NCBI GenBank assembly: GCA_036478295.1
Contig: JAZGDW010000044.1
Coordinates: forward strand, 1-29,921
From: Candidatus Krumholzibacteriia bacterium
Lineage (GTDB): Bacteria; Krumholzibacteriota; Krumholzibacteriia; WVZY01
Reading direction: 5' to 3'
Length of the DNA: 29,921 bases
The notes below the pieces were generated by a model. That model worked only from the letters and a program-made list of their open reading frames with translations, made no database searches and was not told the origin of the DNA. Positions 207-29,921 of the stretch are shown piece after piece. The position numbers were made by a program, and so were the translations under genes. Every line of letters starts with the position of its first letter. The stretch's first letter is position 1.

Positions 207-1679
207 TTACTTGGAGGCTCCGGACTCTGTGAGCGCAAGGTCAGGTTCCGCCGGTCGCACGTCGTCGATCAGTCGCGTGGTGCTGGATGGGGTCGAAACG
301 TCAAACTGCCCCGCACTGTGCCATGCGTCGATCATGATGAGCAGTACAATAACATGCGTTAGTGCACCGATTATGATGAGAGACGCGAAGGGCTGTCCCA
401 GCAGTGCTCCGACAGCAACCACCAGGACTCGCAGGTCGCGCCGCTTCAACCGGTCGAGAAGATTGTTGGGATACGGTTTCCCGAACCTCAGTGTGTACTC
501 TTTGGTCACATAGCTTGCAAGCGGAAAGCTCAAGATCGCGACCAGCCCGGCGGGCCAGATCCACGGCGCAGAGTACTGCCGGGATGCCGCGAACGTCACG
601 GCAATGCCGATGGCCAGATCCGCGTAACGATCCAGCATTGTGTCCAACCATGCCCCGCGGTGGCTGTGCAAAAGCTTGATACGCGCAATTTCCCCATCGC
701 AACCATCCACAATGGATGCTATTTGAATGAGTAACCCACCGATGACCCACGCCCACACGTTTGTAACAACCAGCGCGCCAGCGCCACAGAGTGCTAGAAG
801 GAATGACAGAACGGAAATCTGGTTAGGTGATACCGACGTTCTTGACAGCATTTTGGACATCCAGCGCGATATCGGACGATTCAAGTACTGCGACACAAAG
901 CCATCTTCCCGGCCCTTCATCAGGGACGCATCGACCAGAGCCTCGGCTTCACGGATGGCGTCAGGCGTGTCCACGTCCACCCAGCGGCTACCGGTAACAT
1001 CGATTGCTCGCACGCCGCGGGGGAGACACTCGCGCACGCCGTCCGTCAGGGAGAAGCGACCTCGCAAGCGCGCATGCGACAGGCCACGGAACAGCTCGGA
1101 CGTGCAGTAGAAAAGACCTGTGTCACCCGCGTCCCACGTCTTGAGACCTTTGCCGATTACAACAACGTGTTCGTCTTCGATGCGGACTTTGGTCAGGTCG
1201 GCTTCGTCGAATATATGGCTTTTGTTATGATCGACTGCCAGGGCGATTCCTCCTGGCGGCGGTGGCTGGGAGAGAAGCTTCAGAACCAGTTCGCGCGATA
1301 ACAGATGGTCAACCATGGTCAAGAGGAACGGCTCGTGACCGACCAGGGACTCGGCGGCCGCAGCCGAGCATCCGTTGCCCAGTTCCCAGTTCTTTGCGAC
1401 GATGAAATCGATCGCGCAGCATCGCCGCTTCGCAACGCTCTCAAAGTGGGCTCGCACGGAGTCCGCGTTGGCGCCGAGCACGACCACAAACCGGACCACG
1501 CCCACCTCTCGAAGCCGGGCGATGGAGCGCTCCGCCAGGGAAAGGCCTCTTACACTGATCAGCGGTTTGGGAATCACGTTCGAGCCGTTCTGCAGCCGGC
1601 ATCCATTGCCAGCCGCCAAAATCACGGCCAGGGGCGCCGAACATTGTTCGTTGCCGCTCTTCTTAAACAACAATCGCAT
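207..1679 (-). CDS. Bifunctional nucleotidyltransferase / CDP-alcohol phosphotransferase (IPCT/DIPPS-like)
   Basis: N-terminal NTP-transferase motifs (LAAGNGCRL, PKPL, GNG.S, MVDH, DTG, WVDVDTPD); C-terminal hydrophobic domain with the CDP-alcohol phosphotransferase signature DGCDGEIAR...GAWLDTMLDRYAD; RBS GGAGGAG upstream. Confidence 0.88.
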   Translation of the reverse strand: MRLLFKKSGNEQCSAPLAVILAAGNGCRLQNGSNVIPKPLISVRGLSLAERSIARLREVGVVRFVVVLGANADSVRAHFESVAKRRCCAIDFIVAKNWELGNGCSAAAAESLVGHEPFLLTMVDHLLSRELVLKLLSQPPPPGGIALAVDHNKSHIFDEADLTKVRIEDEHVVVIGKGLKTWDAGDTGLFYCTSELFRGLSHARLRGRFSLTDGVRECLPRGVRAIDVTGSRWVDVDTPDAIREAEALVDASLMKGREDGFVSQYLNRPISRWMSKMLSRTSVSPNQISVLSFLLALCGAGALVVTNVWAWVIGGLLIQIASIVDGCDGEIARIKLLHSHRGAWLDTMLDRYADLAIGIAVTFAASRQYSAPWIWPAGLVAILSFPLASYVTKEYTLRFGKPYPNNLLDRLKRRDLRVLVVAVGALLGQPFASLIIIGALTHVIVLLIMIDAWHSAGQFDVSTPSSTTRLIDDVRPAEPDLALTESGASK

Positions 1680-2496
1680 TGATAATCTCCTCCACTAAGT
1701 CGGGTGTTGCCGCCGCGATCAAGGTCGTACGGTCCCGTAGCCCGTCGAAAGGCCCCAGCGGTGAGCCGTCGAGCTGCACGACCTGACCTCCCGCCTCGAC
1801 TACCACAAGTGCCGCGGCCAGAAAACTCTCAGGCGTCAGCCGACGTCGAACGTCGACGTGTGCGTCGAGAGCCCCGGTCGCCACGAGACACATGGCTCGT
1901 GACGCGCAGCCATAGGTGCGCACACCAGCGCAGGCATGCAGCGTATCCGCCAGCGCGCGGTCTGGACTCCAGTGATTGAGCTCGAAAGACACCACCGCGT
2001 CGCGGAGCTTTCTAACTCCAGACGTCTCCAGCCGGCGACCACATTGGTGGGCACCGTTGCCGCGCGATGCGAGAATCGGGGTCGATTCTGCGAGGTCGCC
2101 GACCACCGCGTGAACCACGCTTTTCGGCGCGAGCGGGGCACTACGCGGCAAGACCGCAATCGAAAGAGCCGCCAACGGCAGGCCGCGAGCGTAGTTCTCG
2201 GACCCGTCCACTGGATCGACGACGAAACAATGGCCACCGGCGGCGACTCCAAACTCAACGTCGTCGAGTTCCTCGGACAAGACGACTCCGTCCACGCCTC
2301 GCCGGATCAACCAGTCCCGAACCCACTTGTCAATCAAGACGTCGAACCGACGCTGCCGGTCGCCCTTGGCATTGTATCCCGTCACGGCGTTTCCATCACC
2401 GTGCTGCATGATTCCTGCTAGATGTTCTCGATACCCCGCGTACAAAGCGTCCAATAACTCGATGATGTTTTCATCAAGAACCGGGATTTTTCCCAT
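1663..2496 (-). CDS. Inositol monophosphatase / FBPase family protein
   Basis: Motifs SEE, VVDPVDGS, R.YGC, EAGG. Start placed at ATG 2496 behind GAGGTG (ORF track starts at 2514); overlaps the IPCT/DIPPS start by 17 bp. Confidence 0.85.
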   Translation of the reverse strand: MGKIPVLDENIIELLDALYAGYREHLAGIMQHGDGNAVTGYNAKGDRQRRFDVLIDKWVRDWLIRRGVDGVVLSEELDDVEFGVAAGGHCFVVDPVDGSENYARGLPLAALSIAVLPRSAPLAPKSVVHAVVGDLAESTPILASRGNGAHQCGRRLETSGVRKLRDAVVSFELNHWSPDRALADTLHACAGVRTYGCASRAMCLVATGALDAHVDVRRRLTPESFLAAALVVVEAGGQVVQLDGSPLGPFDGLRDRTTLIAAATPDLVEEIINAIVV

Positions 2497-2559
2497 AGTA
2501 TACAAACACCTCACTCCCGTTACTCGTGTCGTCGTATGATCGCTGAGCTGGAAATGCTC

Positions 2560-3822
2560 TCAGAGCTTACTCAATGCCAACAACCTGGAACGATCCCGTA
2601 CGGGGACGCCGGCGACATCGGCAAAATCGCTGAACGCGTCCCTGTCGATGAGTTCGCGGTTGCAGGCTTCGGCCGCGAGCGCGGCCAATCGAGAACAGAG
2701 AGAATCCGTTTCGTACGGTGCGGCTTTCAACACCAATGCTTTCTGTGCACGCCGGCCCGCGTCGGTACCGATCATTCGTTCGAATCTTTCGATCTGTTCA
2801 TCGCTCAGGAGCCGGAGGTTCCGCAAGCGGTGTGCAGTCAGCGCGCGAGTCGAACCGTAGTAGTGAGCGAGTAGGGTCAGATCCGAGAAGTTGATCGGGT
2901 GTCGGCCCTCTCGAGTACGACCGTCGACGCGCAAGTTGTCTCCGCGCTCGCTCCCACGCTCGCCCTCGAAGTAGACGGAAAGAACGGTGCGTCCCGATCG
3001 GCCGAGCGTCTCTTTGCCCAACGTCTCGAGGTACCGCCGCACGCCGTGCTCGGGAAGCAGGAACCCCGCAGCAAACGCGTTCGCCCGCACCTCTTGAAAG
3101 TCCATCTCCGCACCGGTGCCGCAGACGCGCCACGGCAGATGGCGGTCGAACAGGGCGTGGGCCAGGCCGTGTGCGTAGTTGAGACGGCGGCGCCCGACAC
3201 TGGCGTCTTCATCCACGACCACGAGGCACCCGATCTCCGGAGAGTTCGCGAAAATCGAGCTCACGCCCCGGGGAAGTCGTGCTCTCGCCGTGCGGACGCC
3301 CATCGAGGTGACGAGTTCGTCGACGAACCGAATCGGGCTTTCACCGAGAGCGAGGCGCCGCCGCTCGTCTTCTGAGGCGCGGTATCCCTGACGAGCCGCG
3401 TGCCAGGAGGTCTCGGGCCGAGTGTCGGCGTAAATCGGCAAGACGTTCGCAATCGCCTCGAAGCCGAGTGTCGACTCGACGGTGGTCAGCATTCGAGCAA
3501 CGCGGAAAACCTGTTGAAACGAGAGGTGTTTCTCCTCCTCTTCCTGGAGCTCCGGTAGCGCCGCGAACAACTCACGCAAGACAATGTCTCCCCGTTGAGT
3601 CCCGCTGTGATACTCGATCGACAGCAGCTCGCCCGTACTACAGCCGTAGCGGAGCGCCAGCCGGTCGACATCTTTGGCTTTTACCGCACGCTTGCCGTTC
3701 TCCATCTGAGCGACGCTCGACCGTGAGACTCCGAGGGTCGGGGCGATGTCCGCCTGGGTCAGACCCCGGGACTTCCTGGCCTCTCGAAGAACCTGGCCTA
3801 TGTCTCTGGCTCGTTCCGCCAT
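2560..3822 (-). CDS. XRE-family HTH regulator fused to ImmA/IrrE (M78) metallopeptidase-like domain
   Basis: N-terminal HTH (LREARKSRGLTQADIAPTLGVSRSSVAQMENGKR); RRRLNYAHGLAH...QEVRANAFAAGFLLP matches the RRRF..AHE.GH...E..AN.FA...L.P pattern except Glu to Gly; RBS GAGG. Confidence 0.88.
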   Translation of the reverse strand: MAERARDIGQVLREARKSRGLTQADIAPTLGVSRSSVAQMENGKRAVKAKDVDRLALRYGCSTGELLSIEYHSGTQRGDIVLRELFAALPELQEEEEKHLSFQQVFRVARMLTTVESTLGFEAIANVLPIYADTRPETSWHAARQGYRASEDERRRLALGESPIRFVDELVTSMGVRTARARLPRGVSSIFANSPEIGCLVVVDEDASVGRRRLNYAHGLAHALFDRHLPWRVCGTGAEMDFQEVRANAFAAGFLLPEHGVRRYLETLGKETLGRSGRTVLSVYFEGERGSERGDNLRVDGRTREGRHPINFSDLTLLAHYYGSTRALTAHRLRNLRLLSDEQIERFERMIGTDAGRRAQKALVLKAAPYETDSLCSRLAALAAEACNRELIDRDAFSDFADVAGVPVRDRSRLLALSKL

Positions 3823-8367: not shown

Positions 8368-9045
8368 TTGAAACGTCCCATATTGAGTCAATCGATGCGA
8401 AACTATCTCAAGGTTATTTACGAGATTCTTGAGAAGCAGAATCGTGCGACGACGTCCGCTATCGCTGAGCGGATGGGATTGTCATCGCCGTCAGTGACTT
8501 CAATGATCAAACGACTGGCCGAACTCAATCTCGTGCGGCACAAACCCTACCAGGGCGTGAATCTCACGCGAAAGGGCGAGCGTACTGCAGTGGAGATCAT
8601 CCGCCATCACCGCCTGATCGAACTCTATCTGGCGGATTCTCTCGGGGTCCCTTGGGATCAGGTCCACGACGAGGCCGAGAAACTCCAGCACGCCATATCA
8701 GAGGATCTCGAGGGCCGTATGGCTGCAGCGCTCGGTAATCCCAGTGTTGATCCGCATGGGGCGCCGATCCCCGCGCGTGATGGCTCGGTCGTTCGTGTCG
8801 AGGGTGTTTCACTTTTCGAGATCGAACCGGGTGAATCAGTGATCGTGCTCGAAGTCGGTGACCGGAATCCGGAGTTGCTACGCCATCTCGGTAATTTGCA
8901 CCTCTACCCAGGTACCGAGATCGACGTCGTTCGTGTGGAGCCCTTTGGCGGTCCGTTGGTTATCCGCGCTGACGGGCGGGAGTTCATTCTGGGTCGTGCG
9001 GCGGCGGGGGAGATCCTTGTGTCGCGTTCCCGGGAACGGGGGTAA
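8368..9045 (+). CDS. DtxR/MntR-family metal-dependent regulator with C-terminal FeoA (SH3) domain
   Basis: YLKVIYE winged HTH, HRLIE, HDEAEKLQH, DPHGAPIP, LYPGTEI..PFGGP FeoA-like tail; TTG start behind GAGG. Confidence 0.9.
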   Translation: MKRPILSQSMRNYLKVIYEILEKQNRATTSAIAERMGLSSPSVTSMIKRLAELNLVRHKPYQGVNLTRKGERTAVEIIRHHRLIELYLADSLGVPWDQVHDEAEKLQHAISEDLEGRMAAALGNPSVDPHGAPIPARDGSVVRVEGVSLFEIEPGESVIVLEVGDRNPELLRHLGNLHLYPGTEIDVVRVEPFGGPLVIRADGREFILGRAAAGEILVSRSRERG

Positions 9046-9050
9046 TCGAT

Positions 9051-10085
9051 ATGGGTTCGCCGATCTCGATCATTATCTCGCTCGTCTTTCTGGTGGGAGC
9101 GGCCGTCGGCCTGTGGTGGCCGGGGATAGGCTTGTTGGTCCGCGGCACCGCGCGAGCCACGCGAGAACGGATCCTCACCGAGGACGCGCTCAAACACATC
9201 TACGACGGTGAATACCGCGGGCACACCGTGCCTATCACGAGTGTCGCGGGCGCGCTGGAGGTCTCGGTAACGCGTGCGGTCGAACTTGTTGATCGTATGC
9301 AGGCGGTGGGACTCGTCTCGCTCCGCGACGGACGACTGCTTTTGACCGAAGAAGGCAACCGTTATGCGCTGCAGGTCATTCGTGCGCACCGCCTTTGGGA
9401 GCGCTACCTGGCAGACGAAACCGGTATCGCTTCGACGGAGTGGCACGCCAAGGCAGAGCGACGGGAGCATACGATGACGCCCGTCGAGATTGACGAGTTG
9501 GCAAGCAAACTGGGTCACCCGAGGTTCGATCCGCACGGTGACCCGATTCCCACGGCCGACGGCACGATACAGGAGATTCCAGTCTTGGCGCTCTCCGATC
9601 TCGAAGTCGGTGATCGCGCCCAGGTTGTTCACATCGAGGACGAGCCGGAGATTCTCTACGCGCAGCTCGTCGCCATGGGCGTGTATGTCGGTATGGTTGT
9701 GCACGTCCAAGCCAAAACCGACAAACGTATGATACTTGATGCCGACGAGCGCGCCCTGGTGATCGCGCCGTTACTCGCCGCAAATATTTCGATCCAGCCG
9801 TTAGAGGTCATCGAGGCGCCGGAGCACGAGGGCCCAGAACGTACGCTCGCCGAACTCGGGGCCGGAGAGGTTGCGGTGGTCGACCGGATCAGCCCGGCGT
9901 GCCGGGGAATCGAGCGTCGAAGGCTGATGGATCTCGGGATCGTACCGGGAACACGTGTTGTGTTCGAGCGGAGAGGTATGACCGGAGGGCTCTCGGCATA
10001 CCGCGTCCGGGGCGCCTTGATAGCGATCCGTGAAGAACAGGCCGCCGTGATTTACATTCACCGCATCAACGAGGTGGCGCAATGA
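9051..10085 (+). CDS. DtxR-family protein with N-terminal TM helix and two FeoA domains
   Basis: Hydrophobic N-terminus, EDALKHI, HRLWERYL, WHAKAERREH, DPHGDPIP, then two FeoA-like repeats (LVAMGVYVG; RRLMDLGIVPG). Confidence 0.85.
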   Translation: MGSPISIIISLVFLVGAAVGLWWPGIGLLVRGTARATRERILTEDALKHIYDGEYRGHTVPITSVAGALEVSVTRAVELVDRMQAVGLVSLRDGRLLLTEEGNRYALQVIRAHRLWERYLADETGIASTEWHAKAERREHTMTPVEIDELASKLGHPRFDPHGDPIPTADGTIQEIPVLALSDLEVGDRAQVVHIEDEPEILYAQLVAMGVYVGMVVHVQAKTDKRMILDADERALVIAPLLAANISIQPLEVIEAPEHEGPERTLAELGAGEVAVVDRISPACRGIERRRLMDLGIVPGTRVVFERRGMTGGLSAYRVRGALIAIREEQAAVIYIHRINEVAQ

Positions 10086-12325
10086 GTGAGCGCACTCCAC
10101 AAGCCTGCGAGACGTGTCCCGCCCACCATGCCGGCAACCTGATCAAGCTCGGCGTGAATATGAAGCGGTTCGATTACGTGGTCGCGCTCGCCGGCAACCC
10201 GAACACGGGCAAAAGCACCGTGTTCAACGCCATCACCGGCCTGCGCCAGCATACCGGTAACTGGCCAGGCAAGACAGTCGCGCGCGCCGAAGGAGGGTTC
10301 GGGCTTGGCGACGCGCGGTACAAACTGGTCGATCTGCCGGGCACCTACTCGCTCATGACGACGACGGTCGATGAGGAGATCGCACGAAACTTTATCCTGT
10401 TTGCGCGACCGGACGTCACGGTGGTCGTGGTGGATGCCAACCACCTCGAACGCAACCTGAACGTGGTCCTACAAGTTCTTGAGATTACCGACCGAGCTGT
10501 TGTCTGTCTCAACCTGGTCGACGAAGCGAAGCGCCACGGACGACGCATCGACCATCGAAGGCTCGCGCGGGACCTCGGCGTGCCCGTCATACCAACCGTC
10601 GCAAATAAACGCGAAGGAATCGATGCGCTCCTGGATGCCATTGTACAAGTGGCCTCTGGCGAGACCGTGTGCGAGCCGCGACGCATCAAACGACGGGATG
10701 TCGGGGCAGAGCGTGTGGTGAGCGAGCTTGCGGAGGAGATCGAGAACTGGCTTCCGGGACTATCCAACGCACGTTGGGTGGCGCTTCGCCTTCTCGACGG
10801 TGACCGGCGCCTCGAAGAGGCGCTTCGGAGCGGCGAACTAATCGATCTTAGCCGCCAGGCCGCTTCGGCAGAAACGATGGCCGGCGCGGGTTCGACCGCG
10901 TTGCCCGATTCCGCGGCGGCCGGGATTCTCGCACACTCACGCACGCTGCGGTGGGAACTCGGTGTCGGGTTTCACGACACGATCACGGAGAATCTCTACA
11001 CAGAGGCGGCGCGGATCGCCGAGCGTGCGACACTGATCGACGACGAGAAACCTCGATTCGACCTCGACCGGTTTATCGACGACGTTGTGACGAGCCGATG
11101 GTTAGGCTTTCCGTTCATGTTATTGCTTCTGACAGGTGTCTTCTGGGTAACGATCGCCGGCGCTAACGTGCCTTCGGCACTGCTGTCGACGCTTCTGATC
11201 GACAAAGTCCATCCAGTGCTTCTGTCGCTCGGCGAGACACTCCGTTTTCCATGGTGGCTTTCAGGGTTCTTGTTCGATGGTGCCTACCTGGCCACCGCGT
11301 GGGTCATAGCGGTCATGCTTCCACCGATGGCAATTTTTTTCCCGCTGTTTACGCTGCTCGAAGATTTGGGCTACCTTGCTCGCGTCTCGTTCAATCTCGA
11401 CGGCATGTTCAAGCGCGCGGGCGCGCACGGCAAGCAAGCGCTGACAATGAGTATGGGGTTTGGGTGCAATGCGGCTGGTGTCGTTGCGACTCGGATTATC
11501 GACAGCCGCCGTGAACGGTTGATCGCGATCATCACGAACAACTTTGCGCTTTGCAACGGACGATGGCCGACCCAGATTCTGATTGCCACGATTTTTATCG
11601 GTGGCGTTGTTCCGGCGCATCTCGCCGGCCTGGCCTCCGCCTCAGCTGTAGTTGGCGTTGCGGTGCTTGGTGTCGCAATGACGGTCGGAGTCTCATGGTT
11701 CTTGTCGAGGACGATGCTCAGAGGGGAGCCGTCATCTTTCAGCCTCGAGTTACCACCGTATCGCAAGCCACGGTTCTGGCACACGCTGTATACATCTCTT
11801 ATCGATCGCACGATCTTTGTGCTCTGGAGAGCGATTGTATTTGCCGTGCCAGCAGGGGCGGTGATCTGGCTTTCGTCTAATATCGATGTTGGCAGCGCGA
11901 GCATCGCCGAACATCTCGTTGGTTGGCTCGACCCGGTTGGGTTGATCCTCGGGCTCAACGGCGTGATTCTGCTGGCCTACATCGTGGCGATCCCCGCGAA
12001 TGAGATTGTCATCCCAACGATTCTGATGCTCACCGTAACAACCGCCGGGGTCGCTGGGCTTGGCGAGGGGACCGGCGTGATGTTCGAGCTGGAATCGGTC
12101 ACCGGTACGAGCTCCATCCTGGCACTAGGGGGTTGGACACTGTTGACAGGCGTCAACCTTATGCTTTTTAGCTTGTTGCACAACCCCTGTACGACCACGA
12201 TATACACGATCTGGAAAGAAACCCATTCCAGGCGCTGGACGACAGTCGCGACGATGCTACCGCTGGTGATCGGGATCGGCGTCTGTCTCCTGGTCGCGCA
12301 GGTGTGGCACCTCTTTGCCGGTTAG
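10082..12325 (+). CDS. feoB: Ferrous iron (or Mn) transport protein B
   Basis: G1 GNPNTGKS, G2 NWPGKT, G3 DLPG, G4 NLVD; EDLGYLAR, GFGCNA, ELPPYRKP, PC motifs; ATGA overlap with the upstream gene. Confidence 0.95.
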   Translation: MSERTPQACETCPAHHAGNLIKLGVNMKRFDYVVALAGNPNTGKSTVFNAITGLRQHTGNWPGKTVARAEGGFGLGDARYKLVDLPGTYSLMTTTVDEEIARNFILFARPDVTVVVVDANHLERNLNVVLQVLEITDRAVVCLNLVDEAKRHGRRIDHRRLARDLGVPVIPTVANKREGIDALLDAIVQVASGETVCEPRRIKRRDVGAERVVSELAEEIENWLPGLSNARWVALRLLDGDRRLEEALRSGELIDLSRQAASAETMAGAGSTALPDSAAAGILAHSRTLRWELGVGFHDTITENLYTEAARIAERATLIDDEKPRFDLDRFIDDVVTSRWLGFPFMLLLLTGVFWVTIAGANVPSALLSTLLIDKVHPVLLSLGETLRFPWWLSGFLFDGAYLATAWVIAVMLPPMAIFFPLFTLLEDLGYLARVSFNLDGMFKRAGAHGKQALTMSMGFGCNAAGVVATRIIDSRRERLIAIITNNFALCNGRWPTQILIATIFIGGVVPAHLAGLASASAVVGVAVLGVAMTVGVSWFLSRTMLRGEPSSFSLELPPYRKPRFWHTLYTSLIDRTIFVLWRAIVFAVPAGAVIWLSSNIDVGSASIAEHLVGWLDPVGLILGLNGVILLAYIVAIPANEIVIPTILMLTVTTAGVAGLGEGTGVMFELESVTGTSSILALGGWTLLTGVNLMLFSLLHNPCTTTIYTIWKETHSRRWTTVATMLPLVIGIGVCLLVAQVWHLFAG

Positions 12326-23524: not shown

Positions 23525-23879
23525 GGGGGCGATTTGGGCTCGACGGGGATAGTGGAGTGTAGGCTGCGTGTCGAGATTGCCATGAGCTCGTAAAAACTGT
23601 GGTAAACCAAGAAGTGTCGACGAACCAGTCGCACTGGCTGCCTAACTAAGCAGCTCGTCCTGCGTGGGATGGGTCTCCAGGACCCACGTGAGGGCGTCAT
23701 CCACTGGGGAATAGCCGGCGAGGAGAGCCCTGGCTTCACTGGCGAAATTTAAGGGTGGGCCGCCCGGTGATCCTGTTTGTGGGGAGCCCGGGTGGCGGGA
23801 TCAAAACCACGAACTACACACGTAGACGCTTGCATGGATCTTTCTTCGGACGCGGGTTCGATTCCCGCCGCCTCCACCA
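23525..23879 (+). ncRNA. ssrA: tmRNA (transfer-messenger RNA), tag peptide (A)VDEPVALAA
   Basis: 5' GGGGGCG pairs with 3' CGCCTCC-A-CCA including the G3-U Ala determinant; T-arm GCGGG-TTCGATT-CCCGC; tag frame 23616-23645 ends LAA-TAA; 355 nt. Confidence 0.96.
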
Positions 23880-23935
23880 GTTTGCTCGTTGCACTCGCCA
23901 AGCAGGCGCCGGACAAGCTCCGCCGCCTCCACTAA
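23873..23935 (+). repeat. Left copy of ~62-bp tmRNA-linked direct repeat
   Basis: Aligns by eye to 29441-29502 at 50 of 63 positions; contains a second copy of the tmRNA end, CCGCCGCCTCCAC (23920-23932). Confidence 0.85.
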
Positions 23936-24080: not shown

Positions 24081-24244
24081 TAATAGCTTAATGCCTGAAT
24101 GTCAAGTTCATGGTACGTTTAGTCATCAAAAGCCGCTCGCCTGAGGGACCGCAGGTTCCGAAAATATCGCATGGGTGAATCGATTCGTCCCGCGCGTCCG
24201 CGCGGGTCGGTCCAAATACACAAATAGCGCTTTGCGGGGTGCAC

Positions 24245-26578
24245 ATGTTAGGGAAGACAATCTCCCATTACCGCATACTCGACAAACTCGGTGAGGGCGG
24301 TATGGGTGTCGTTTACAAGGCCCACGACACGAAACTCGATCGCACGGTTGCCCTGAAGTTTCTATCGCCTCGTGTCGTCGATCGGGATGCCGAAAAGACA
24401 CGATTTGTCCACGAGGCCAAGTCCGTGGCAGCGTTGCACCACCCAAACATCTGCACGATCCACGAGATCGACGAGTTCGAAGGGCAGTTATTCATCTCGA
24501 TGGCGTACATAGAGGGAACGAGCCTGCGCGATCAGATTGCCGATGGGCGGGTCGGTGTCGCAGAGGCAATCGACACCGTCATGCAAATCTGCTCCGCGCT
24601 CCAGGAAGCCCACGACAAGGCAATCGTCCACCGCGACGTCAAACCCGCGAACATCATGCTCGAGCAGTCCGGTCGAGCTGTGTTAATGGACTTCGGCCTC
24701 GCGCGCCAGAAAGACGCTACGCGACTCACGCGAACCGGCACAACGGTAGGGACAGTTGCGTACATGTCACCCGAACAGCTGCGCGGCGATGAACTCGACG
24801 GCAGGAGTGATCTGTGGTCGCTCGGCGTGGTCTTGTACGAACTTCTCGCTGGTTGCTTGCCTTTCAAGGGGGAAGTCGAACCGGCTCTCATCTACTCGAT
24901 CATGAATGAGGATACCGAGCCGATCGTCTCTCACCTTGCAGGCGCGCCCGCGGGTCTCGAAGGCATTCTGGCACGGGCGCTTGCGAAAGACCCAGTGGAG
25001 CGGTATGCCAGCGCGGCGGAGCTCCGTGCCGACCTGGAGGAGGTTCGCAGCGACCCCGAAGCGTTTCCCGCGGGGGTGCCCCGCCGCAGGTCCACTCGTA
25101 AGCGTGTTTTCGCCGGGGTCGCAGGTCTGCTGGCGGTTGTTGCGGCGTTTTTCCTCGTATCCAGGATTTTCTTCGACGGCCAGGCGCGTGCATCGATCGC
25201 CGTCTTACCGTGCATCAATGTGAGCGGTGACCCCGATCACGAGTATCTGAGCGACGGGATAACGGAAGATCTCATTTTGCATTTCTCCAGGCTCAACGGG
25301 TTCCGGGTCCTGAATCCGATGACCATGTTCCAGTATAAAGGAACCGAAAAGAGCTCGCGTGAGATCGCCGGGGAGCTCAACGCGACCGTCCTCCTTCGTT
25401 CGCGCATGCGAATGAACGGGGATCGGATCGAGCTATCCGTCCAGCTCATCGACCCCGGGACGGACGAGATCGCATGGGCCGATCAGTACAACGAGCCTGT
25501 CAGTAACATACAAAACGCTCAACGCAAGCTGGTCCTGGAAGTCGCACAATCGCTGAATGTGGTTCCGGCGTCGGCAGAGAGGCAACGCCTGGAGCAGACA
25601 TCCCCCGTCGACCGTGAGGCGTACCTGGCATATCAGCGCGGCAGGGCATTAATGAGAGCACGCACGCAACACGGCATGGAAAAAGCCATCGAGTACTTTC
25701 AGGCAGCGATCGCAGCGGACTCTACCTGGGCCCTGCCCGTTGCGGGGCTCGCCGAAGCACACATGGTGTTTGCTAACCCCTACTATCGGCAGGGACAGTT
25801 ATCCTACGAAGAGCTGACAAGCTTGGCAGAGAAAGACTCCATAAGATGGAAAGAAATGGCCAAGCGAGCGCTCACGCTAGACCCGAACCTCGCCGAGGCT
25901 CATATGGTCATTGGCGACTACGAGAAGGCTCTCGAGATTAACCCCAATCTTGCTTGGGGCTACTACTACCATAGCCTGGCTCTTGGCGAAATTGGACAAC
26001 ACGATCGCGCGATCGAGGCAGCCGAGACAGCGGTATCCCTGGATCCCGGAAACCTTGTCATGAACGTTATCCTGGGAAAGATACTCACGCTGGCACGAAG
26101 GTACGACCGCGCCGAGCGGCAACTGATCGAGAGCATAGACATGGATCCCGAACACAGCGCCGCCTACGTCGAGCTACTCTTGCTACACGTTATGAAGGGC
26201 GAGTACAAAAAAGCCATCGAGCCCATGAAGAAGTTCGTCGAAATCGAAGGGGGACAACCCGAAGCTTTCGTACCGATGCTCCGCGCCGCCGCGGGTGAAA
26301 TCGATGTCGACGAGCGCGTGCTTTCAATCGTTACTGCCGTCAAAAAGCTGTACGGACCCCACAGCGCCGCCTGGTGTTATGCGATGCTGTCCCGCTACGA
26401 CAACGCGCTGGACTGCCTCGAGGAGGCATTCGAGTTGGGCGGATCAAAGGTTTACCTTGTCCATCAGTACCCGATGTTCGATCCGATCCAGTCAGAGCCC
26501 CGGCTTGTAAAGCTGCGTCAGCGTATGGCCGAACGAATCGCTGAGATGCAGCGCGGGGAAAAGGAGGTTCGACGATGA
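24245..26578 (+). CDS. Ser/Thr protein kinase with TM helix, TolB-N-like domain and TPR repeats
   Basis: GEGGMGVVY, VALK, HRDVKPAN, DFG, YMSPE; TM VFAGVAGLLAVVAAFFLV; SIAVLP...YLSDGITEDLI; TPR-like ALxLDPN repeats. Confidence 0.93.
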   Translation: MLGKTISHYRILDKLGEGGMGVVYKAHDTKLDRTVALKFLSPRVVDRDAEKTRFVHEAKSVAALHHPNICTIHEIDEFEGQLFISMAYIEGTSLRDQIADGRVGVAEAIDTVMQICSALQEAHDKAIVHRDVKPANIMLEQSGRAVLMDFGLARQKDATRLTRTGTTVGTVAYMSPEQLRGDELDGRSDLWSLGVVLYELLAGCLPFKGEVEPALIYSIMNEDTEPIVSHLAGAPAGLEGILARALAKDPVERYASAAELRADLEEVRSDPEAFPAGVPRRRSTRKRVFAGVAGLLAVVAAFFLVSRIFFDGQARASIAVLPCINVSGDPDHEYLSDGITEDLILHFSRLNGFRVLNPMTMFQYKGTEKSSREIAGELNATVLLRSRMRMNGDRIELSVQLIDPGTDEIAWADQYNEPVSNIQNAQRKLVLEVAQSLNVVPASAERQRLEQTSPVDREAYLAYQRGRALMRARTQHGMEKAIEYFQAAIAADSTWALPVAGLAEAHMVFANPYYRQGQLSYEELTSLAEKDSIRWKEMAKRALTLDPNLAEAHMVIGDYEKALEINPNLAWGYYYHSLALGEIGQHDRAIEAAETAVSLDPGNLVMNVILGKILTLARRYDRAERQLIESIDMDPEHSAAYVELLLLHVMKGEYKKAIEPMKKFVEIEGGQPEAFVPMLRAAAGEIDVDERVLSIVTAVKKLYGPHSAAWCYAMLSRYDNALDCLEEAFELGGSKVYLVHQYPMFDPIQSEPRLVKLRQRMAERIAEMQRGEKEVRR

Positions 26579-29133
26579 TTTCCACAAAGGCCTGGTTTAG
26601 CTGTCTAGTTATGTTCGCCGCTGTTGCATCGGATGCATCCGCTGTAACGTCCCCTGTCGCTGGACGCATTGTCGACGTTTCGTCCCGGAAACCTGTTGCG
26701 TATGCGGCGGTCACGATGGTGGATAGTGCGGGTACCGTCGTTGGTTGGTTTCTTGCGACCGATCAGGGCGAGTTCTACTTCGAAAGGGACCTGGGTCAGA
26801 GTGTGACGCTCATGGCCAGCCATATTGGGTATCACCTTACCCGGCGTGAAGTTATGGCGGGTGATCGCGATACATCGGGCATCACGATTTCGATGGAGCC
26901 AAACCTCTTCGTGGCCGCGCCGATCGTAGTTAGCGCTTCAAGACGGCGTGAGACGAGCTTCGATGCGCCGGCCTCTGTGACCGTGATCAAAGGCTCGGAA
27001 GTCGGGCGGCAGCAGAGTTTCACGCCCTTGGACCCGATAAAGAACACTATGGGCATAACCTTTTCGAGAAAGGGGCTCCTCGCCGCTACTTTTAACACGC
27101 GGTTCAGGAGCGGCGTGATGAACGGCGGCACGCTGGTTCTACAGGATCACCGCTATACCCGGCTCCCGACCCTGCAACTCAACATTCCCTATCTTCTCGC
27201 TTCCAATCCGGCTGACATCGATCAAATCGAGATCATCCGAGGACCAGCGGCTTCACTCTACGGCCCGGAGGGAGGTTTGGGCGTCGTCCACATCAAGACG
27301 AAATCACCGTTCGATCAACAGGCTACGTCGGTGTCCTTCGCAGGAGGAGAGCGATCCGTGTTCGAGACCTGGGTGAGTCATTCGGCGTTGTTGGGCGAGA
27401 ATCTCGGTTATCGGGTCTCGAGCAAGTACTTTCGCGGCGAGGACTGGCTGCCAAGGGACCCCGCGATAAGAGAACAGGCACACGAAACGCTGGAGCAAGC
27501 CACGAGCAGCGCTCAAGTCGAGTGGCGGCCGGATGCGGAGACGAGGCTGATCGCGCGCGGCGGAACTGCCTACGTTTTCGAAATCCTGGACCAGGCTCCC
27601 GCAACTTATGCCCAGTTAAACGACTTCAGCTTCAATTATGCGCAGCTAGAGTTCCACAAGCGACGTTTCATGACGAATCTGGCCTACAGCGGGAACGACG
27701 CCGGTGAGACGTTCTTTGTTCCGAGCAATGTACGGTTTATTGACCGATCGTTTCTCCTTGCAGGCCAGATCCTGAATGCACAGGATGTGCGGATTGGAAA
27801 GACGCTGCATCAGTTGTCGTACGGGGTTGACTGGCGAAACTCGATCATACGATCCGAAGGCACGTTGACGGGTCGTTTCGAGGACGACGATACCGTGACA
27901 GAGATCGGTGCATACACTCAGGTGACGTCCGTTGTATCACCGAAATGGGATGTGGTGGCTTCCGTGCGCGCGGATCATCACGATCGGCTGGCAAATGGAA
28001 CTGCATTTCCGTTCCGATTGGGAGTTGTGTTCGAGCCCAAGCGATCGCGCCACGCGCTCCGGCTCACCTTCAATCGTTCCGATGGAGCGCCATCTCCCAG
28101 CGTGTTATTCGAGGACTTCCCAATTGGGGGACAGACGCCGTTCCAGCTGAAGGTCGTCGGGATTCCAAAGGGGGGGTGGACCTTTCCGCGCGACGCCAAC
28201 GGCGGGTTTCTCATGCGCTCGGCGTTCGTCCCAGGAGGGCTTGACGACTTTGGAACCGCCGATGCGACGCGCACGTGGGGCGCGTTGCAGGCGATGATCC
28301 CACAGCTCGCGTCCGTCCCGGCCCCGTCTTCCAGCGAAGCCCAAACGGATCTGCGGATCTTCCAAGTGGGAAGCGGATTTGTTCCCTTCAACCCCGGTGA
28401 GCTTCAGGATGTGCACCAGTTGGAGCGGACAGTCAGCGAGTACGTGGAACTCGGTTACAAGGGGCTGCCGATGGACAATCTGGAGATCAACATCGATGGC
28501 TTCGTGAATCGAAGAACGAAAGGTCTAACCACCGAGCTGCGAGCCATCACGCCGAACGTTTTTTATGACGTCAACACGCTCGAGACGTACTTGTCCGGGT
28601 TCATGACCCCTGCCGAGGCGGCCGCTGTCGCGCAGCAGGTGTCATCCAATCCGGTCGGCACCGTTGCACCCCGTGAGGCGGGGAGCAGTTCCGAAATCCT
28701 GTTAGCGTTTGCCCCGCTCGACGGGGCCCGAACGAGCTGGGGCATAGACATCAACGCCCGGGTTGCGCTGGTCGACCAGTTTTCCCTGGCGGCCACCTAC
28801 GGATATCACCGGGCCGATGCGCGGGACGAATTCACTTCTGTTCCGCAAAACAGAGGGGCCGTGCGGCTCGAGTATCAGCGACCGTCGGACAGCTTTGCCG
28901 CCGCGTTGCAGGTCCGGAGCCAGTCACCGTATACCATGGACGTGGCAGTCTGGACGGGTAAGGTCGAATCGTTCACAGTCGTCGATCTGGATGTCGCGTA
29001 CCGTCCCGATTGGCTGTCTCGTGTCCAACTCTTTGTTAATGTGAGCAATTTGCTTGACGAAGAGCACGTGGAAATCGTGGGCGGAAAAGAGCTCGGCCGT
29101 CTCGCAACCGCCAGAATCCAGTTTGATTTCTAG
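26575..29133 (+). CDS. TonB-dependent receptor
   Basis: Signal peptide, carboxypeptidase-regulatory-like N-domain, IVVSASRR, plug motif IEIIRGPAASLYG..GVVHI.TK, C-terminal NLLDE...F; ATGA overlap with the kinase. Confidence 0.92.
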   Translation: MISTKAWFSCLVMFAAVASDASAVTSPVAGRIVDVSSRKPVAYAAVTMVDSAGTVVGWFLATDQGEFYFERDLGQSVTLMASHIGYHLTRREVMAGDRDTSGITISMEPNLFVAAPIVVSASRRRETSFDAPASVTVIKGSEVGRQQSFTPLDPIKNTMGITFSRKGLLAATFNTRFRSGVMNGGTLVLQDHRYTRLPTLQLNIPYLLASNPADIDQIEIIRGPAASLYGPEGGLGVVHIKTKSPFDQQATSVSFAGGERSVFETWVSHSALLGENLGYRVSSKYFRGEDWLPRDPAIREQAHETLEQATSSAQVEWRPDAETRLIARGGTAYVFEILDQAPATYAQLNDFSFNYAQLEFHKRRFMTNLAYSGNDAGETFFVPSNVRFIDRSFLLAGQILNAQDVRIGKTLHQLSYGVDWRNSIIRSEGTLTGRFEDDDTVTEIGAYTQVTSVVSPKWDVVASVRADHHDRLANGTAFPFRLGVVFEPKRSRHALRLTFNRSDGAPSPSVLFEDFPIGGQTPFQLKVVGIPKGGWTFPRDANGGFLMRSAFVPGGLDDFGTADATRTWGALQAMIPQLASVPAPSSSEAQTDLRIFQVGSGFVPFNPGELQDVHQLERTVSEYVELGYKGLPMDNLEINIDGFVNRRTKGLTTELRAITPNVFYDVNTLETYLSGFMTPAEAAAVAQQVSSNPVGTVAPREAGSSSEILLAFAPLDGARTSWGIDINARVALVDQFSLAATYGYHRADARDEFTSVPQNRGAVRLEYQRPSDSFAAALQVRSQSPYTMDVAVWTGKVESFTVVDLDVAYRPDWLSRVQLFVNVSNLLDEEHVEIVGGKELGRLATARIQFDF

Positions 29134-29216
29134 TCGCCAGGTCGTCTGTCGCCTTTGCTTTCTCCTCCGTGCCGTCGTCCGACCGGCGTCGTGTGGTCGG
29201 GCGGGAAAGGGCTGCA

Positions 29217-29447
29217 TCAGCCCATCGGACGATTGGGGAGACGGTCAAGCCACGCGATCGCCTTGGATACCGTCTTATCTGTGACGTGGAGCCTCCTGGC
29301 GATCGCCGAACAGCTCATGCCAAGCTGTTGAAGGTGAAGTGCCTTCCCGGCGATTCGCTGGTAGGCTGGTGCGGCGCGTGTGTCCACGAGGGCAACTTCC
29401 AGGGGTACCTGAGCGGCGGTTCGAATTCTTTGCGTCCGTGTCCACCA
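29217..29447 (-). pseudogene. Start-less HTH-containing reading frame (candidate displaced recombinase C-terminus)
   Basis: Manual translation WWTRTQRIRTAAQVPLEVALVDTRAAPAYQRIAGKALHLQQLGMSCSAIARRLHVTDKTVSKAIAWLDRLPNRPMG*; in-frame TAA directly upstream; GMS.SAIARRL.V...TV is a classic HTH pattern; absent from the ORF track. Confidence 0.6.
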
Positions 29448-29502
29448 TTATGTTCGCTTCGCTCACCAAGCAGACGTCGGACAGGCCCGCCGCTTCCACC
29501 AA
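29441..29502 (+). repeat. Right copy of ~62-bp tmRNA-linked direct repeat
   Basis: Begins TCCACCA; ends with CCCGCCGCTTCCACCA (29486-29501), 15 of 16 identical to the tmRNA 3' end at 23864-23879. Confidence 0.85.
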
Positions 29503-29578
29503 CCTGTGCGGAAACCAGGCGGACAGTGCCGGGTTTCGTTTGTACGACGCATCTTTTCGGGCGGCATAGGTTGGTGGA
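29495..29578. repeat. 15-bp inverted repeat with 54-nt loop
   Basis: TCCACCAACCTGTGC (29495-29509) and GCATAGGTTGGTGGA (29564-29578), 14 of 15 complementary, abutting the stop codon of the YCF48-like gene. Confidence 0.75.
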
Positions 29579-29920
29579 TTACAATCCGCCGGCATCCGTC
29601 GTACGCAGGATCGTCCCGTCACGCCCCACGATTGTGCCCGTCTTGCTTCCGCTGAAGAAGACGGCCAGGAGGGCGTTCGTGGTACCACCGGGTTGACTCT
29701 CCCAGTTGATGCCACCGTCCGTCGTACGCCGAATGATACCGGTTTGGCCGACGACGGTGCCCGTTGATGCGCTTGTGAAGAACACACCGAAGAGATTGCC
29801 GCTGGTACCACTCGGCTGAAACACCCAGTTGTCACCGCCATCCGTCGTTCGCCGCATTTGCCCTTTGTCCCCAACCACGATCCCGGTGTTCGCGTCAGTG
29901 AAGAATACACCCGTGATATC
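29579..29920 (-). CDS. 3' end (partial) of YCF48/BNR-repeat beta-propeller protein
   Basis: Repeats of GVFF....TG.VVG..G.I.RTTDGG.NW; runs off the right edge. Confidence 0.85.
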   Translation of the reverse strand, partial: DITGVFFTDANTGIVVGDKGQMRRTTDGGDNWVFQPSGTSGNLFGVFFTSASTGTVVGQTGIIRRTTDGGINWESQPGGTTNALLAVFFSGSKTGTIVGRDGTILRTTDAGGL

Positions 29921-29921
29921 G

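Follow-up and report, generated by a model that had tools for sequence, protein, structure and literature searches.

A start-less helix-turn-helix frame at a tmRNA island is probably the stranded 3′ end of a large serine integrase gene with attP inside it

RESULTS

Why should a helix-turn-helix (HTH) frame without a start codon open exactly at the core of an attachment site, at the far end of an island inserted at a tmRNA gene? The question arose with a contig of Candidatus Krumholzibacteriia bacterium (GCA_036478295.1, contig JAZGDW010000044.1), the whole 29,921-nt stretch of which was analyzed and is referred to here as the window. On its minus strand, positions 29450 to 29217 read as a stop, 76 codons running from WWTRTQR to NRPMG, and a second stop. 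The in-frame TAA preceding the frame lies at 29448–29450, and the opening codons, TGG TGG, are the reverse complement of the core TCCACCA at 29441–29447. An earlier reading, made from the sequence alone, had described this minus-strand HTH frame opening at TGG TGG after TAA, had noticed that no start codon is present at its opening, and had stated that the tmRNA end, read in the same way, gives WWRRRESNPRP. These observations held. Translation and Pfam recovered the frame (HTH_23 at 24.7 bits versus a cut-off of 24.6, i.e., barely above it, with an E value of 2e-5), copies in the family have no conserved start codon, and WWRRRESNPRP was reproduced from the tmRNA gene at 23525–23879. Evidence from sequence, Pfam, relatives, and AlphaFold2 indicates that the frame (29217..29447, minus strand), composed of the arm-coded WWTRTQRIRT, one beta-strand, and a three-helix HTH, is the stranded C-terminal module of a large serine recombinase (LSR) family; it is probably the 3′ end, stranded at attR, of a large serine integrase gene that has attP inside the gene.

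The integration target is the tmRNA gene (ssrA, 23525..23879, plus strand, ARAGORN), the 3′ end of which is the core TCCACCA (23873..23879, plus strand), with the central dinucleotide placed at 23873–23874 by attP symmetry. The attB arm within the tmRNA (23855..23872, plus strand) carries a T-loop motif 12 bp from the crossover so placed. Next comes a 55-nt unit (23880..23934, plus strand) that closes with a degenerate second core, as seen in repeat comparison, followed by two cargo genes assigned by Pfam, a Ser/Thr kinase with TPR repeats (24239..26578, plus strand) and a TonB-dependent receptor (26575..29133, plus strand). At the far end, the attP-derived right arm (29418..29434, plus strand) has its motif 17 bp from the inferred crossover, and the same DNA provides codons 5 to 10 of the HTH frame. 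The attR core TCCACCA (29441..29447, plus strand) is followed by a 54-nt unit (29448..29501, plus strand), which is 79% like the 55-nt unit, closes with another core, and is the source of the in-frame TAA. The 3′ end of a YCF48/BNR-repeat gene (29579..29921, minus strand, Pfam), at which the contig ends, is probably cargo of the next island, if the locus is read as an array. The 7-mer TCCACCA alone is not beyond chance, with 3 copies on the plus strand and 4 on the minus strand of the whole window. The att site was judged real because a 63-nt repeat, 79% identical, opens at both cores (E value of 6e-8 against the genome), because the 17-bp arm of the family is present at 29418–29434, and because nearly all of 75 close homologues match the frame from WW onward, as described below.

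ORFs and Pfam revealed no recombinase gene in the island and no LSR between 23880 and 29216, and therefore no tail swap takes place at the window locus. The left arm of the family is absent across the island, scoring 4/18 at both cores and at best 11/18 elsewhere. In the genome of the window, which is 91% complete, no family LSR was found, and the best match to the family profile (70.6 bits) is to other LSR clades. Judged by these features, the island is a non-autonomous remnant, in which the right arm and the HTH have been kept and neither the LSR nor the left arm is present. The island was also considered as a source of an LSR-HTH gene in its own right and was rejected, since in silico closure at each core pair yielded no recombinase or long frame before the HTH. 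Four DNA sequencing runs, inspected as contigs, gave scattered cover with no joint at either core, a result that speaks neither for nor against a circle.

A TTCGCTNCGCTC-like motif is present in the core-to-core units of 54 to 55 nt (window 23880–23934 and 29448–29501), and a related CGAAG motif stands directly before the core in 9/114 distinct HTH copies. The units had no blastn match in the fetched loci; two homologues, P0009 and P0013, open with sequence resembling the translated 55-nt unit. The tag peptide called by ARAGORN, GEESPGFTGEI, is probably a miscall, and window 23619–23645 reads DEPVALAA-stop, which resembles the tags of other tmRNAs in the fetched loci.

Word-based protein searches identified 75 close homologues, comprising all 68 of 68 candidates of similar length and 7 of 72 longer ones. 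Nearly all of them align from WW onward and carry unrelated sequence before WW, and two of the seven longer proteins (P0005 and P0001) are LSR C-termini joined via SNSLR|WWTRTQR. A profile search extended the set to 683 proteins at E ≤1e-10 (50%-identity representatives), some of the weaker ones being generic HTH proteins. When 218 proteins were sorted by pattern, 19 had an LSR-like tail before the junction, 149 had something else, and 50 were without an arm-coded start. DNA scans yielded 50 genome loci and 72 metagenome loci, the latter from the best 80 of 293 matches, and none of these loci is viral. The pattern used in the locus scan contains WW and favors copies opening there, so that the sharp start is partly by construction in these loci; the protein searches were run without such a pattern.

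The copies were drawn from records that carry the labels Acidobacteriota, Krumholzibacteriia, Gemmatimonadota, Actinomycetes, Spirochaetales, Deltaproteobacteria, and others. Viral contigs gave 30 pattern matches with 0 confirmed, plasmids gave no match to the 76-aa peptide, and phages gave distant LSRs only, with 24 to 31% identity in the top rows. Two strong and two weak matches were found in 60 other genomes related to that of the window, and the distribution of the element is therefore patchy. Two proteins, P0126 and P0091, contain two or three tandem copies of the family HTH.

Ten complete core-bounded elements of 2.76 to 2.82 kb were recovered, with the HTH frame at the far end. Their gene order is HTH frame, MerR-like gene, an ORF of 54 to 63 aa, and LSR in 9/10, the content of L018 being different from that of the other 2.8-kb elements. 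In the ten elements, the LSR frame meets the core in register with WW and then continues into antisense RNA. ARAGORN identified the target as tRNA-Ala in five elements; L018 sits at the tmRNA, L122 at an end of tmRNA type, and the remaining three at tRNA-like ends that are cut off. As read from these boundaries, insertion in this family takes place at the final bases of tmRNA or tRNA-Ala genes. When the elements were closed into circles in silico, an LSR-HTH ORF of 622 to 625 aa was formed in 9/10, the exception being L018, which is without an intact N-terminus.

With the C-terminal part of a fused LSR as the query and 8000 candidates scored, 112 LSR homologues were obtained. An antisense tail is present in 77 of them and the HTH in 5; another 8 stop at most 3 codons from the core, and the remaining 22 are truncated or of other kinds. 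The length of the integrated tail varies from 3 to about 150 aa. Natural LSR-HTH fusions via GSNSLR|WWTRTQR were found in P0005 and P0001 and at loci L006, L030, L090, L112, and L120. Resolvase, Recombinase, and zinc-ribbon domains, passing all three Pfam cut-offs, are present in the L122 LSR and in P0249. On the evidence of these genes, the integrated form is a complete canonical LSR of about 550 aa followed by a variable antisense tail, and the circle, or the junction of two family elements, encodes the same LSR with a conserved module of 72 to 76 aa.

These results bear on several claims of the sequence-only reading. It had expected matches as C-termini of serine recombinases, which are the natural fusions listed above, and start-less copies at distal island ends, with recombinases ending in WWRRRESNPRP; the latter were seen in the 10 elements and in 77/112 homologues, the ending being either WWRRRESNPR or tRNA-Ala antisense. 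The proposed exchange of an HTH tail on the circle for a tmRNA-antisense tail in the chromosome agrees with what was found in relatives, i.e., in the 10 elements and the fusions, and fails at the window locus, where the island has no recombinase. The tmRNA target that it named is correct for L018 and L122 and incomplete for the family, which uses tRNA-Ala too.

No circle was observed, the one fetched locus with a terminal repeat not being a fused element. Among chromosomal fusions with an intact junction, a catalytic N-terminus is present in 0/4 versus 76/107 (Fisher p 0.009; 4 cluster representatives), and the fifth fusion, P0249, is full length and has lost the junction. Loss of the N-terminus in the intact-junction fusions is as expected if intact ones resolve themselves, and it may be taken, in this small sample, as an indirect sign that the long form is the integrating enzyme; it is also explained by an attP junction that is unstable beside an active LSR, whatever the isoform. 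The 63-aa ORF adjoining the LSR has no Pfam match and only unnamed Atlas neighbours below 0.9. A 21-bp palindrome, ATGATAG-N7-CTATCAT, precedes this ORF in 9/11 elements checked (L016, L077, L079, L084, L086, L087, L106, L122, and L124). In five elements it is also found before the MerR-like gene, and it is a candidate operator.

Once rebuilt, attP forms an inverted repeat that spans about 48 bp and has its centre in the core. Each attP arm places TCGAAC 17 bp from that centre; in the RNA arm, the distance is 12 bp and the motif is the T-loop (10/10), and the other attB side is without TCGAAC in 10/10 elements. The zinc-domain motif of attB is thus closer to the centre by 5 bp than that of attP in 10/10 elements, and the same offsets are found in the two arms of the window. 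A 5-bp shift of this motif between attP and attB has been described as a rule for LSR sites (PMC3783163). The crossover point was inferred from symmetry, and the 5-bp difference is independent of its position. By its motifs, the attB of this family appears to be one-armed, with the T-loop motif on the RNA side only.

For the analysis of selection, 145 copies were available in 119/122 loci; 115 were distinct and long enough, 98 were intact and ungapped, 17 having been set aside as broken, truncated, or gapped, and 93 remained at 95% identity. The dN/dS value for codons 12 to 66 was 0.25 (38 disjoint pairs from the 93 non-redundant copies), and that for codons 12 to 20, upstream of the GTG of the window, was 0.27; shifted frames gave 1.37 and 1.68. 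Codons 3 to 11, which are the att arm, showed little synonymous change (pS of 0.06) and appear to be constrained as DNA. Beyond codon 11, pS was 0.37 and pN was 0.12, in the HTH frame only, and conservation drops to background upstream of the core. Codon 21 is start-capable in 12/93 copies and codon 18, the commonest such position before the HTH helices, in 29/93, while 38/93 copies have no start-capable codon within codons 3 to 30. These values argue for a selected protein without a start of its own.

The internal GTG at 29387 does open a 56-aa frame that contains the entire HTH, which the sequence-only reading had given as an alternative product, and a few such short forms are annotated in databases (P0073 and P0075). 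That the frame encodes such a stand-alone protein, its placement beside the core being incidental, is nevertheless very improbable: few copies could start at codon 21, selection upstream of the GTG equals that downstream, and no promoter-like site was found in 29100–29700. For the family, this alternative is contradicted by the upstream selection and by the lack of a conserved start codon, and the outcome that would have refuted the sequence-only reading, stand-alone small HTH proteins with starts of their own, did not materialize. Conservation of the frame as DNA only, i.e., as the att arm plus accessory sites and not as protein, is hardly credible, for although codons 3 to 11 behave as an att arm and a full LSR is absent from 31/42 complete segments, the excess of synonymous change in one frame past codon 11 and the confidently folded HTH helices described below contradict it for codons 12 to 66.

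To place the start-less protein on its presumed partner, we turn to the AlphaFold2 model of the natural fusion P0005 (mean pLDDT of 88.7, pTM of 0.67). The tail was modelled as two short helices, an 8-residue strand at 397–404, and three helices at 412–455, the HTH helices folding with a pLDDT of 95 to 98. The strand persists in a 176-aa fragment (pTM of 0.46), in which the only other strands are those of the last hairpin of the LSR. Since the tail has no second strand, its strand must pair with the LSR body, a partner deduced from DSSP, as the fold outputs come without contacts. The prediction for the tail is thus a three-helix HTH together with a single strand that joins the LSR sheet. Alignment of solved LI, SPbeta-type, and Bxb1 integrases with the model extends to about residue 369, and that of phiC31 to 391; because the canonical alignment ends at about 369 and the junction is at 385, the integrated form keeps the whole canonical LSR. 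Structural matches of the HTH are generic HTH folds only (best Z of 5.8, rmsd of 3.8, 54 aligned), among which it resembles regulator and sigma-4 domains. Searched against PDB sequences, the HTH profile produced only three matches, all weak and generic, and the ESM Atlas gave only unnamed or generic HTH clusters below 0.9.

The fetched loci contain 42 complete segments: 11 with LSR and left arm, 11 with the left arm only, and 20 with neither, a class to which the window belongs and in which 2 of the 20 carry LSR remnants. Among the 31 segments without a full LSR, 26 keep 64 open codons; HTH frames with stops amount to 5/31 in LSR-less segments versus 0/11 in those with LSR. The dN/dS of HTH frames from LSR-less segments was 0.22 (10 pairs). 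The HTH copy of the window falls in a 26-row group that includes 10 LSR-less and 0 LSR-bearing members, with a dN/dS of 0.21 among those 10; the support of this group, 83/85, is below threshold, and one of its members, L059 (3781), retains an LSR remnant. Selection on the LSR-less frames may be inherited from lost parents.

In L006, an LSR-less cassette is fused to an LSR, and L059 has six copies in 20 kb. It is conceivable, if rather unlikely, that an LSR-less cassette inserts itself next to the tmRNA, on the side of a resident LSR gene and thus between the two, supplies the missing domain of that gene, and turns on the form of the enzyme that moves the cassette; the HTH frame would then be kept under selection in LSR-less cassettes because they complete a resident LSR. 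The idea of supply by an adjacent island was raised briefly by McMurdie et al. in 2011 (PMC3146451). Against such a role, every intact-junction chromosomal fusion with a readable start has a truncated LSR. Were it true, the array would resemble an integron, operated by a serine integrase for which one specific arm in each cassette is enough.

Positions 348, 3248, and 4871 of L029 are successive junctions of one array, with the same 30-nt left flank and no family arm, which suggests arm-less cassettes spreading as such. On contig C184 of the window genome, cargo genes (kinase-TPR, FG-GAP-like, and YCF48-like) are set apart by four copies of the tmRNA 3′ end in which the T-loop is included, and a third 55-nt unit is present. 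The contig probably represents a further part of the tmRNA array, generated by a different element family, and no connection to C256 emerged.

DISCUSSION

If the HTH tail is encoded by the circle and stripped on integration, what may it do? Given this architecture, we consider it somewhat likely that the long form is the integration-committed enzyme. An incoming circle has the long form as its sole version of the enzyme, and the site into which it must integrate is one-armed; the long form is therefore read as the integrating enzyme. The HTH would give extra grip on DNA where attB has no second motif, and the strand of the tail would occupy the edge of the zinc-domain sheet, the usual docking place of directionality factors. 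C-terminal strands of SCCmec LSRs, it has been proposed, could likewise block the directionality-factor site (PMC12286644). Integration would strip the module, and the remaining enzyme would excise with the help of a directionality factor; the conserved 63-aa ORF directly upstream of the LSR is a candidate for this role.

With the same architecture, the tail could instead set the level of the enzyme, by stabilizing the protein or by repressing the element promoter. The BPs repressor offers a precedent for a level changed by a tail (PMC4557955), the widely varying lengths of integrated tails suggest filler that is possibly unstable, and the likeness of the HTH to regulator and sigma-4 domains fits with repression. 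The elements, however, have a MerR-like regulator of their own together with the 21-bp palindrome, and a degradation switch needs no conserved strand plus HTH, which leaves this reading doubtful. Quite improbable is the opposite assignment, in which the enzyme carries its own directionality factor as the tail, excision is the task of the long form, and the short form either integrates or does nothing. Most known directionality factors do add a strand to the zinc-domain sheet of the LSR (PMC12286644), as the tail is predicted to do, and artificial C-terminal fusions of integrase and RDF work (PMC5737554). Yet the incoming circle codes for the long form only and has to integrate, and the separate 63-aa ORF beside the LSR in complete elements could be the factor.

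An LSR gene that crosses its attachment site, as we favor for the family, has a published counterpart in DsiB, a serine integrase at ssrA, the gene of which always overlaps attL and has no stop of its own (McMurdie et al. 2011, PMC3146451). According to that paper, Dehalococcoides ssrA islands are tandem and 15 are without an integration module, and its authors suggest that DsiB is fully functional only on the circle or beside an island supplying the 3′ fragment. In both systems, the serine integrase has about 540 aa and is encoded beside ssrA on the reverse strand, and L018 and L122 share the att overlap too. DsiB, in contrast, crosses in the T-loop at a 20-bp direct repeat, whereas the window family crosses at the acceptor tip at the 7-bp core TCCACCA; the T-loop motif is spaced differently in the element arm of the window family. 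Six genes make up the DsiB module, among them DsiA and the ParB and Mom homologues, while the 2.8-kb elements have the MerR-like gene, the 63-aa ORF, and the LSR. The main text of the DsiB paper leaves the 3′ fragment unnamed, with 0 occurrences of "helix" (PMC3146451). The comparison of DsiB with the window family is by description, not by sequence.

LI/A118, Bxb1, phiC31, and SPbeta integrases resemble the family in their Resolvase, Recombinase, and zinc-ribbon domains, in fold, and in the 5-bp motif shift between attP and attB. Unlike these canonical LSRs, the family has attP inside the gene, a target at the tip of a tRNA or tmRNA that is read via the T-loop, an attB with one recognisable arm, and a folded domain added in the circle. 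The gene of Mx8 IntP also lies across attP and has its C-terminus altered by integration, but IntP is a tyrosine integrase, whereas the partner in the window family is a serine recombinase (PMC4383910). In BPs immunity, attP inside a gene likewise gives two C-terminal forms; there, the gene is a repressor, and the viral form carries a degradation tag and not a DNA-binding domain (PMC4557955). Archaeal suicidal tyrosine integrases of SSV1, pTN3, and pT26-2 have att in the gene and the whole gene in the circle only, a layout viewed as a directionality control of its own; their split leaves two inactive halves, whereas the integrated gene of the window family keeps all canonical LSR domains (PMC8371274).

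The layout and the circle encoding the full enzyme have already been published for DsiB at ssrA in 2011 (PMC3146451). Our literature searches brought up no report of a serine integrase that swaps an HTH, and they were leaky, having missed PMC3146451 itself; with the same reservation, the folded and selected HTH tail, the evidence of selection, and the one-armed T-loop attB were not found in print. According to Islander 2015, targeting of tRNA genes was not known for serine recombinases; Mx8 and SSV are its examples of integrases extending across attP (PMC4383910). The main text of Durrant 2022 contains no mention of tRNA, tmRNA, C-terminal, or helix-turn-helix (PMC10083194). Some Tycheposons are described as carrying an LSR.

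For a sister system, the present work would put a name to the missing 3′ fragment guessed at in the DsiB paper, as a folded and selected strand plus HTH domain, and it makes testable, on a single 2.8-kb element, whether the integration state alters the behavior of a serine integrase. Databases mostly show the integrated form (85/112 homologues are antisense-tailed or core-stopped and 5 carry the HTH), and miners of genome-editing tools may therefore assay the wrong isoform. Many phyla could be open to cargo insertion by an integrase that recognises the conserved T-loop plus CCA end through one arm.

Other tails and genes were encountered in the window genome. Contigs C21, C36, and C195 (L001–L003) hold three long LSR frames of another clade with a near-identical 35-aa tail, which follows M/V-(V)AGARC or MAPGVRC and has near-identical DNA behind its stop. 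This has the look of another tail that crosses att, with many strand residues and no HTH. On C98 (17376–18315), an LSR frame ends in tRNA-Asn antisense, and C132 (1–535) has a second tRNA-Asn with the same 40-nt flank as on C98 plus an LSR fragment. Within the window, 8368–12325 contains two DtxR/FeoA-type genes before feoB, i.e., an iron or manganese uptake operon (Pfam). Positions 207–3822 encode an NTP-transferase/CDP-alcohol phosphatidyltransferase fusion, an inositol monophosphatase-like gene, and an HTH_3-IrrE fusion (Pfam), the first two of which may belong to a compatible-solute pathway.
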